Origin: Thermodesulfobacteriota bacterium
GTDB lineage: Bacteria; Desulfobacterota_D; UBA1144; Nemesobacterales; Mycalebacteriaceae
Reading direction: 5' to 3'
Assembly: GCA_965198945.1 (NCBI GenBank)
Contig: CBDAQI010000004.1
Span: 77,230-141,229, forward strand
DNA length: 64,000 nt
The position numbers are program-made. Positions 37,301 through 40,300 of this stretch are shown here, in pieces (position 1 is the first letter of the stretch; every line of letters starts with the position of its first letter).

Positions 37301-40300
37301 ATTTTGAAGACAGGGTCAGAGAGGTTCTCGGAGGAACCAGTTTGTATCCCATTGAAGCGTCGGGCCGAGAAGGCGGGGCCCGAGTGGTCGGATTTCTTTG
37401 TTCTCCTTCGGACGGGTTTTCTTCAATGATGCGGCTCTACTGTTATGTAAACGGCAGGTATCTGCGTGACAGGTTTTTGAACAAAGTTGTGATGGAGTCT
37501 CTGGGGCGCACATTTGATGCAAAACGCTATCCCCAGGGAGTCATTTTTATCAGCGTTCCCTCTGAGAATATTGATGTCAATGTTCATCCCACAAAGCACG
37601 AGGTTCGTTTCAAATCTCCGCGCGAAGTTGCCGGAGTCCTGATGGACGCCATAAAATCTTTTCTGTCCACGGCTCCCTGGATGACCGGCCGCGAGAAGAA
37701 TGTGCGGCAATCGGTGGAAACTTTTCTGCGCGAAAAAACTGACGGTGCGGGCGGATTTGAAAAACGGTTTGATTTTTCCGGCTCCGCGCGCCCTTCTTCC
37801 GGAGGAAATTTCAAGGAGAGTTCCGGTTCGTCCTACTCCGCGGACTCTCCGGAAACCATAAACCGGCTTCCAATGGGCGATATTAGCGGAGAGGGTTTTT
37901 TCTCACAGCTCAAGGTTCTGGGTCAGGCGGGAGATCTTTACATAATATGTGAGGGGAGGGAGGGTCTTGTTGTTATTGACCAGCATGCGGCGCATGAAAG
38001 GGTCAACTTTGAAAGATTCAGAAACAGTTACCGAAATGACGGCGGTTTGACTGCGCAGAAGCTTCTGATTCCGGAGATTATAGAAATGCGCCCCGAAGAC
38101 GCGGCTTTATTCACCAGGTTTGAGAACAAGATGAAAAATCTGGGCCTTAAGGCGGAGATGTTCGGAGAAAATGCGGTCAGGCTTGAGTCCGTTCCCTCGC
38201 TTGTGTCTTGCATGAGTGCAAAAGACCTTTTTATTGACACTCTCGCCCGGTTGGATGAGTCCGGTTGTCCGGAAATTCCGGGAGAGCTTGACAAAAAAAC
38301 TGAAGATGTTCTTGCCACAATGGCGTGTCACAAGTCAATAAGAGCCGGATACACAATGGCCGAGACCGAGACGAAATCCCTTCTGTCCGATATGGACAAA
38401 TGCGAGTCTCCGCATTTTTGTCCGCACGGCCGTCCCGTTGCGGTCAATATAACCTACGGCGGTCTTGAGAAGATGTTCAACAGGAAGTAGTCTCACCTTT
38501 TACGGAGAATAAAATAAATGGTTGTTGAAACAAGTGATTTCCACAGAGGAATGAAGATAGAAATGGATGGCGGAGTATGGGAGATAATTGAGTATCAGCA
38601 CTCAAAAATGGCTCAGCGCAGCCCCATAGTAACGGTCAAAGTGCGCAACATCGTCACGGGCGCCGTGCAGGAGAAAAAGTTTCGTTCGGGCGACAAATTT
38701 GATACTCCCGACATCAGAAAAAGAATCATGCAATTTCTTTATTCAGACGGTGATTTCTATCATTTTATGGACGCCGAGACTTACGACCAACGTGAGCTTT
38801 CAGCGGATCAGGTCGGCAAAGCGGCGGGTTACTTGAGTGAGAATCAGGAAATTCAGGTCAATTTCATCAACGGAGAAGCATATGGAATTGAGTTTCCCAA
38901 AGTGGTTGTTGAATTGAAAGTTGCCGATGCCGAGCCCGGTGTAAAGGGTGACACCGCCGCAAGCGCGACAAAACCGGCGACCTTGGAAACCGGGGCGAAG
39001 GTGAACGTTCCCCTCTTTGTCAATCCGGGTGATATGATAAAAGTTGACACACGAGACGGAAGTTATGTTGAAAGGGTGAAATAGGGTTTTTCAAGGGCGG
39101 GTTGCGGCTTCTCCGTGAGGGATTCGGCCGCTTTATAAAGTTGTTTTTTCTGTTTTCCGCTTAAAAACAGACACTGTCCGGCATACAGTTTTTTCGGAAG
39201 TCTGACGGTTCCGAAACGCACTCTCATCAAACGGCTTACCGAACACCCGCATGATTCCCACATGCGCCTTACAAACCTGTTTCTTCCCTCTTTTAGCACC
39301 ACCCTGAACCATTTGTTGCTTTTGTCTTTTGAATTAAGCGCCGTAACTCTTTCAAAACATCCGGTTTTGCCGTCAAGCGGCAATCCGTGAAGGAGTTTTT
39401 CAACGGTCTCTTTCCCGGTATTTCCCCTTACGCGCACAATGTATTCACGTTCAATTCCGTTTGAAGGATGCGCAAGTTTATGCGCGAGAGAGCCGTCCGA
39501 ACAAAAAAGCATCAGTCCCGAGGTGTTAATATCCAGCCGGCCGACGGAAACCCATCTGGAATTTTTCAAGGGAGGCAGGTCGTCAAAAACGACCGGGCGT
39601 TTTAACGGGTCGCTCCGGCTTACGATTTTGCCGACCGCTTTGTTGTAGATAATTACCCGGTCATTTTCCTCAAGCGCCCCGGCGCAGTTTACTTTCACGC
39701 CGTCCACCGTTATTGCGTCTTCAGGCTCGGCCTTATCCCCGAGTTTGCAGACTTTGCCGTTGAGCTCCACCGCGCCCGATTTTATCAACTCCTCAACGCT
39801 CCTCCGCGAACCGATTCCCGCGGCGGCGAGCAGTTTCTGTATTCTTTCCGCCATTTAGAATCTGGATATAATTTCGTAGAAAGTATTTCTCTGAGCGGGC
39901 TCAAAGCCCGCGCTCTTTATCATGTCGGCAATTTGCTCCGCGCTCGCCTTTGTTCTGTTTTCCGCGCATCTGAGAACGTTTTCCTCATACAGAGTGCCGC
40001 CGAGATCGTCCGCCCCGAAATGCATTGATACGGAACCGATTTTGAATCCCTGAGTGAACCATGAACCCTGAATAAAGCGGAAGTTGTCAAGAAAGATTCT
40101 GCACACCGCAAGCACGCGCAGGTAACGTTCTCCGCCGGCTTCACTTTTGATTTTGCGCTCAAGGAAGGTGTTTGTGGGTTTGAAAATCCACGGTATGAAA
40201 GCCAGAAAACCGCCCGTTTCGTCCTGCAAAGACCTTATTCTTAAAAGATGTTCAACAATGTCTTCATCGCTTTCCAAATGTCCGAACATCATTGTTGCCG

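Follow-up and report, generated by a model that had tools for sequence, protein, structure and literature searches.

[quoted passage not shown] The window analysed here, a stretch of 64,000 nucleotides from a Thermodesulfobacteriota bacterium, encodes an EF-P with Gln at this tip, which raises the question whether such a factor is active and, if so, which residue of its loop does the work. Many bacteria have no known modifier, and the way their EF-P acts is still unsettled (PMC11388002, PMC12931083; these and all other papers are cited for the accessible parts of their text and tables).

The efp gene and its loop

The features of the locus are as follows:
38518..39084, plus strand: efp, coding for elongation factor P of 188 aa, single copy (profile match, fold model)
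38504..38507, plus strand: GGAG, 10 nt 5′ of the ATG, a putative ribosome-binding site by its sequence
38605..38625, plus strand: beta3/beta4 loop K30-M-A-Q-R-S-P36, of the canonical seven residues, without Gly and without Pro at -2 (sequence, alignment, strands of the model)
38614..38616, plus strand: codon CAG of Gln33, in the column of E. coli Lys34 (alignment)
38617..38619, plus strand: codon CGC of Arg34, in the column of E. coli Gly35 (alignment); the proposed basic contact
38935..38958, plus strand: domain III loop (residues 140-147), which retains Gly-Asp-Thr as in E. coli (alignment)
36691..38490, plus strand: mutL, the upstream neighbour (context), which precedes efp in 15 of 21 loci
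39063..39854, minus strand: gene for an RluB-like pseudouridine synthase, convergent with efp and overlapping its 3′ end by 22 nt (context)

The protein scores 232 bits with the efp model TIGR00038 (cut-off 185.8) and is thus a member of the EF-P family; with the EfpL models it stays far below the cut-offs (TIGR02178, 124 vs 264 bits; NF003392, 130 vs 216). A tblastn search of the 1.39-Mb, 95% complete genome gave a single significant match, the three remaining ones having E values of 2-5; neither a second EF-P nor an EfpL was found. The AlphaFold2 model computed with 13 sequences (pLDDT 87; strands 19-28 and 37-44) and the Foldseek search with it agree on the KOW + OB + OB fold: the top matches are EF-Ps (TM 0.8-0.9 at ranks 1-5), with 1UEB at rank 2 (TM 0.88) and EfpL at rank 17. 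The loop itself has a pLDDT of about 73, and Arg34 is placed off-centre in the model. Within the genus of the window, efp is under purifying selection (dN/dS 0.07-0.13 over 10 pairs). The open frame and the recurrence of this loop type in 88 of the 96 order genomes led us to reject a frameshift, an assembly error or a pseudogene. The domain III loop of EF-P acts at the E-site codon (PMC12856214). The RluB-like gene adjoins efp in just two of the 21 loci, both from the window's genus.

The EF-Ps of E. coli and of the window align without a gap through the loop, with an offset of +1 on either side, so that the sole EF-P does have Gln in the Lys34 column, as the genome-wide survey's note had claimed. 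Met31 falls into the column of position 32, where Gln-tipped EF-Ps are without Pro. With the published Gln-tipped EF-Ps the protein further shares the seven-residue loop and the single copy. None of the other known loops is present, neither PGKG with Lys34, PGKGP, Gly-Arg at 33-34 and the Arg tip of the EarP type nor the Lys tip of 5-aminopentanolylated EF-P (YmfI pathway). A loop extension as in EfpL, where two extra residues hold the Arg apical with a Pro three residues before it (-3), was rejected, since counting from both flanks gives no insertion compared with E. coli EF-P; the Pro is missing as well.

Among the known types, the protein resembles the EF-Ps of D. radiodurans (KMGRGGA in the table of Sieber, PMC11611912) and T. 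thermophilus (KLGRGG; PDB 1UEB, 4V6A) in the Lys-Met start, the normal length and the lack of a modifier, and KMGR of the Deinococcus type is also found in seven relatives of the window's genome. In those two proteins a Gly stands on either side of the apical Arg; the EF-P of the window has neither Gly and carries Gln at the apex, with the Arg as the next residue. EfpL (YeiP, PDB 8S8U) has a functional unmodified Arg33 that corresponds to the Arg34 column, counted from the N-terminal side, but it is usually a second copy while the EF-P of the window is the only one. The PGKGP EF-Ps of Actinobacteria and Bacteroidota likewise do without a modifier by the design of their loop; Pro36 follows the loop here, but Lys tip and flanking Pro pair are missing.

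Further observations were made in the window. Two adjacent ORFs of 444 and 420 aa (45496-48133, plus strand) contain Gly-rich, collagen-like stretches and have no Pfam match; they are directly preceded by an HNH endonuclease gene (44604-45311). A 362-aa exported-looking protein (35034-36122, minus strand) has repeated domains and a PPPP run, likewise without a Pfam match.

Loop variation within and outside the phylum

Source labels of relatives among the close homologues are Ca. Dadabacteria and Ca. Mycalebacterium zealandia. A single efp match was obtained in 116 of 120 genomes of the phylum and in 97 of 101 of the order; one efp per genome, as stated in the survey, is therefore correct apart from four genomes without a match. 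In the first of these, G026, mutL runs off the contig end and efp lies in the contig gap, G003 and G029 lack mutL as well, and the assembly of G090 is 59% complete. In G026, mutL and an rluB-like gene (L352, L354) are split over several frames, which may be due to sequencing errors.

The loop could be read in 115 of the 116 proteins (the sequence from G041 ends ahead of it). The tip residue is Gln in 100, Arg in eight and Ala in seven, which bears out the report of relatives with Arg or Ala tips. The Gln loop reported for most of the window's order was recovered as K[MIV]AQR in 88 of 96 genomes, next to KMGR (7) and KMARR (1). VMQAR, given earlier for the other order (genomes of 0.8-1.1 Mb), is present there in seven of 19 genomes and is the minority form, the other 12 having VMQQR. 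The residue after the tip (+1) is Arg in 108 of 115 proteins, and the remaining seven all carry Gly-Arg at the tip, so that an Arg at the tip or at +1 is found in 115/115. The loop is nearly constant over two orders whose EF-Ps share about 50% identity; at Pro36, Ala or Ser is found instead in 41 of the 110 relatives compared. The seven Ala-tipped sole EF-Ps are under purifying selection (dN 0.12-0.16, dS 2.9 or saturated; three pairs).

In an RpoC phylogeny that covers 30 of the 120 genomes and has its root on the other order, Arg-tipped loops branch from among Gln-tipped loops, with KMARR (G016) and KVAQR (G017) as sisters. Parsimony makes Gln-Arg ancestral with about 3-5 changes (G030 is placed uncertainly); the compensation by Arg therefore counts as about 3-5 independent events and not as 115. 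The EF-Ps of the phylum form one clade on loop-masked trees (support 0.997; SH-aLRT 98), which gives no support to the idea that the KMGR forms entered the phylum as imported whole genes. In the RpoC frame of the window's genus (L143; G000:C13:163217-169948), 1645-1667 aa long vs about 1370 elsewhere, about 250 residues are inserted at frame positions 185-440. Two further positions of EF-P possibly reflect shared ancestry: His28 (38599-38601) is replaced by Ser in six of the seven KMGR relatives, and Asn163 (39004-39006) is present in 7/7 of them vs 4/103 others, the window's genome included.

Since Ala replaces Gln in seven sole EF-Ps while Arg is kept in 115/115, Gln33 is probably not a modification site. 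Since the +1 Arg is lost only together with a gain of Arg at the tip, the neighbouring Arg34 is likely a contact, placed near the P-site tRNA's CCA end. The survey had raised such a takeover by the neighbouring Arg as a caveat, and the comparative data favour it.

An alternative is that the unmodified factor is active through the Gln side chain or a stiff, Gly-free backbone, the +1 Arg being a general RNA contact. Data from outside the phylum bear on this. Gln tips were found in 12 of 150 cluster representatives, one of them from the window's phylum, as Gln-Arg (9), Gln-Ala-Arg (2) and Gln-Ser (1); the residue before the tip is Ala, Gln or Ser, never Gly, in 12/12, and the +1 residue is Ala or Ser in 3/12. 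Dehalococcoidia (80 loci, some labelled SAR202) have KMQQRAP in all 79 readable loops, as sole EF-P in 5/5 genomes tested. Gln tips are listed by Volkwein 2019 (PMC6544042), never together with Pro32, and Gln is included among the tip residues by Sieber 2024 (PMC11611912), whose table holds at least 15 Gln rows, all sole EF-Ps; the 15 listed from it are Gln-Arg (9), Gln-Ala-Arg (1) and Gln-Gly (5). The Gln-tipped sole EF-P is already in published tables and is not a new class. Examples with Arg are Thermodesulfovibrio and Dissulfurispira (KMQQRAP), Erysipelothrix (KTAQRQM), Brachyspira (RAQQRKA) and Elusimicrobium (RKSQARA) (PMC6544042, PMC11611912). The Gln-Gly rows, without a +1 Arg, are Caldimicrobium (KVAQGQA), Dictyoglomus (HMAQGQA, 2) and Thermodesulfobium (RKAQGAA, 2) (PMC11611912).

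These five Gln-Gly proteins, and the Dictyoglomus loop without any Lys or Arg in particular, would fit activity by Gln or backbone, and they argue against a universal role of the +1 Arg. The missing Gly before the tip would fit as well, and loop stiffening is known to activate the unmodified PGKGP type (PMC12856214). Within the phylum, however, Gln gives way to Ala in the seven sole EF-Ps that retain the Arg, and the +1 Arg disappears only when the tip is Arg, so that we regard this alternative as unlikely.

The published Gln-tipped EF-Ps are like that of the window in Gln34, absence of Pro32, seven residues, single copy and, mostly, the +1 Arg, with EarP apparently lacking too; the share of the +1 Arg outside the phylum rests on the 12 representatives and the 15 table rows, 15 being a lower bound. 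In contrast to these, the window's phylum has Gln, Ala and Arg tips side by side, and a tree can give their order. The loop-masked trees show Gln tips in scattered places; a single clade is not rejected (p-AU 0.318), and convergence is thus not demonstrated. Dadabacteria and Mycalebacterium gave no match in the accessible Sieber table, and in the open literature searched (without the Volkwein FASTA and supplements on bioRxiv) we found neither a functional test of any Gln-tipped EF-P nor a comment on its +1 Arg; further background is given in bioRxiv 2023.09.18.558224 and PMC5885033.

Modifying enzymes and back-up factors

With the modified EF-Ps (beta-lysylated by EpmA/B, rhamnosylated by EarP, 5-aminopentanolylated in B. 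subtilis) the protein has the fold and the motifs of domains II and III in common; unlike in these, the acceptor Lys or Arg is missing at its tip. EpmA, EpmB and EarP were not found. The best EpmA match in the window's genome stays below the cut-off (244.8 vs 286.9 bits), as the survey had reported, and is a 500-aa frame whose length points to LysRS. EpmB gave no match in this genome, so the epmA/epmB pair of the beta-lysylated type is not present. The EarP profile matched in none of the 120 genomes, though no control genome gave a match either. A transglutaminase was not found. An extra Gln methylase of the HemK type is unlikely, a single gene of the family being above the cut-off; two further matches are weak. 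In the 21 loci, efp has no uncharacterised gene as a conserved neighbour; beside it are mutL and genes for a sirohaem enzyme, a GYD protein and a SIS-domain protein; an ORF of 128-144 aa without a Pfam match lies near efp in three of them. With EpmA, EpmB and transglutaminase not found and no conserved flanking gene, no known modifier fits.

Two genes outside the window, not mentioned in the survey, have to be considered here:
L112:1435-2490 (G000:C1:321352-322287): deoxyhypusine-synthase-like (DHS-like) gene, closest NCBIfam model PRK00805 (410 vs 434 bits)
L111:755-1507 (G000:C7): yebC, ahead of ruvC- and ruvA-like genes named from sequence (profile match over the cut-off)

The DHS-like protein would be a candidate if Gln33 (by methylation or polyamination) or Arg34 carried an undescribed modification made by an enzyme encoded elsewhere. 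Its gene is present in 113 of 120 genomes of the phylum, including 18 of the 19 of about 1 Mb, at 65-84% identity and with what we take to be the catalytic-Lys motif intact, and this form was not found in five of the eight Arg-tipped genomes. DHS needs a Lys amine, yet no loop Lys is invariant among the aligned EF-Ps, and DHS is absent from 5/5 Dehalococcoidia with a sole KMQQRAP EF-P and from five of six published Gln rows examined, so that it was rejected as a general modifier. Moreover, the gene is kept in the other three Arg-tipped genomes and in the Ala-tipped G111, where the tip cannot be modified, and usually lies between leuS and thiE-like genes, not beside efp. Although the absence of any modification and the work of an unknown modifier look alike at the level of genomes (PMC12931083), we consider a modification of this loop very doubtful. 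An SDR oxidoreductase gene (L112:2520-3287) follows the DHS-like gene in three of 21 loci, those of the window's genome, G025 and G020. Queries with E. coli SpeD and SpeE gave no match and only a weak match, respectively, in the window's genome.

YebC, a back-up factor, is above the cut-off in this genome and in 114 of 120. The absence of ABCF proteins reported in the survey holds for the genus (ABC_tran_Xtn in 0/6 genomes) and not for the phylum, where 75 of 120 genomes have one, with 0/19 in the other order. In vitro, in E. coli extracts, the E. coli YebC of this subtype relieved stalling at a pentaproline, and in Salmonella YebC and EF-P are redundant (PMC12234827); YrbC, the counterpart in B. 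subtilis, gave no rescue in vivo (PMC11990639; review PMC13602936).

YebC also is the basis of another explanation, in which EF-P is weak on polyproline and is kept for other ribosome contacts, proline runs being covered by YebC and slow growth. YebC can replace EF-P in Salmonella (PMC12234827) and could keep proline motifs viable here, and slow growth hides the loss of efp (PMC12856214). About 80% of all bacteria carry YebC (PMC11990639), however, so it is no special compensation in this phylum, and a loop that stays nearly constant between EF-Ps of about 50% identity is not what such a factor would lead one to expect. We judge a weak EF-P to be rather improbable, and the proline motifs, tRNAs and rRNA described below bear further on it.

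Proline motifs and the proposed role of Arg34

In 1354 ORFs called with our own gene caller, 60 PPP motifs were counted vs 29.8 +/- 5.8 expected; for ORFs of at least 100 aa the numbers are 48 vs 28.9 (ratio 1.66, 95% interval 1.14-2.25). PPP motifs are thus not avoided, in agreement with the survey, but its 68 vs 28 could not be reproduced. For PP the ratio of observed to expected is 1.12 both in the window's genome and in the KMGR relative G019, 0.91 in the QAR relative G111 and 0.83 in E. coli (comparators of 400 kb, 400 kb and 200 kb; PPP intervals wide). Slow growers carry more proline motifs (PMC12856214). Because they are richer in motifs and E. coli with its fully modified EF-P has the lowest ratio, the excess says little about EF-P; as proof of activity it was discarded, the PP ratio not following EF-P quality.

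A better test are motifs that are lost after EF-P disruption (PMC11388002). The proline motifs of ValS, IleS, Lon and Clp are retained in the window's genome; the PPP of ValRS, reported earlier and found again here, was also present in 5/5 other genomes checked, three of them Ala-tipped. The PP of FtsH is lost in the window's genome and in 4/4 genomes of the other order, which would suit a factor weak on polyproline, but it is retained in 17 of 19 Gln-Arg genomes of the window's order (24 of 30 genomes altogether, with 7/7 Arg-tipped). Two of the three tRNA-Pro of this genome keep the 9-nt D-loop that EF-P reads (PMC4890201), in line with a working factor. The third would suit a weak EF-P:
G000:C13:121374-121448, minus strand: tRNA-Pro(CGG) with a 10-nt D-loop and a U12-A23 pair (sequence)

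[quoted passage not shown] Despite this D-loop, CCG is the commonest Pro codon of the genome, PP pairs included. PP pairs seldom begin with CCC (13% vs 34% of single prolines), an avoidance known from other bacteria (PMC12856214). A compensation by rRNA was not seen in six 23S stretches compared, which are nearly unchanged.

We return to Arg34. The reading that we favour is a working, modification-free EF-P whose positive charge comes mainly from this residue; as a whole we give it an even chance, and we are fairly confident that the factor is active and unmodified in either form, Arg-based or based on Gln and backbone. The protein would bind the E-site of proline-stalled ribosomes like other EF-Ps. 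Gln33, at the apex of a loop of normal length (register from the alignment, apex from the model), would be a short spacer and not an acceptor of a modification, and Arg34, one residue beyond, would steady the P-site tRNA's CCA end with the help of Lys30. The loop would switch blockwise between A-Q-R and a G-R-x like that of Deinococcus; A-R-R would be the intermediate that occurs in nature, and Q-A-R would go one step further. Activity would probably be moderate and dependent on the motif, with YebC as a partial back-up. In favour of this reading is also the Gln-Arg pair of most Gln tips outside the phylum (9 of the 12 representatives, all readable Dehalococcoidia loops, 9 of the 15 table rows). 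Against it stand the Gln-Gly sole EF-Ps, the lack of EfpL's additional loop residues, the off-centre Arg34 of the model, the small number of independent events and the loss of PP from FtsH.

That EF-P may work unmodified is suggested by the swaps with the KMGR type, for which this has been shown, and by the tolerance of an Ala tip. Purifying selection and the retention of most EF-P-dependent proline motifs are further, indirect signs of a working factor. Unmodified D. radiodurans EF-P complements E. coli lacking efp and uup (PMC12931083, Brewer 2026), where it acts well on TPPH and poorly on LPPP; three of six foreign EF-Ps failed in E. coli (PMC12931083). The survey's conclusion that the factor must work unmodified is thus probably right as to the lack of a modification; the "must" does not follow, since YebC exists, the PP ratio is uninformative and Gln tips had been published before.

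More tentatively, and at somewhat below an even chance, we propose that Gln-Arg and Ala-Arg loops are an unrecognised design of modification-free EF-P, in which the loop keeps its normal length and the working Arg is shifted from the apex by one residue. Such loops would characterise the sole EF-P of Dadabacteria, SAR202-type Dehalococcoidia, Thermodesulfovibrio, Brachyspira and Erysipelothrix and would flip to and from KMGR via Arg-Arg. If this is not true, what remains is a wider count of a variant that is rare but already known. On a single scaffold, the phylum presents AQR, QQR, QAR, ARR and GRx as a series of loops made by nature. If the proposal is true, classing EF-Ps by residue 34 misses the functional residue of the whole Gln-Arg/Ala-Arg class; with the +1 Arg as the working residue, the position-34 rule would need amending, and there would be one more template for an EF-P that needs no modification.
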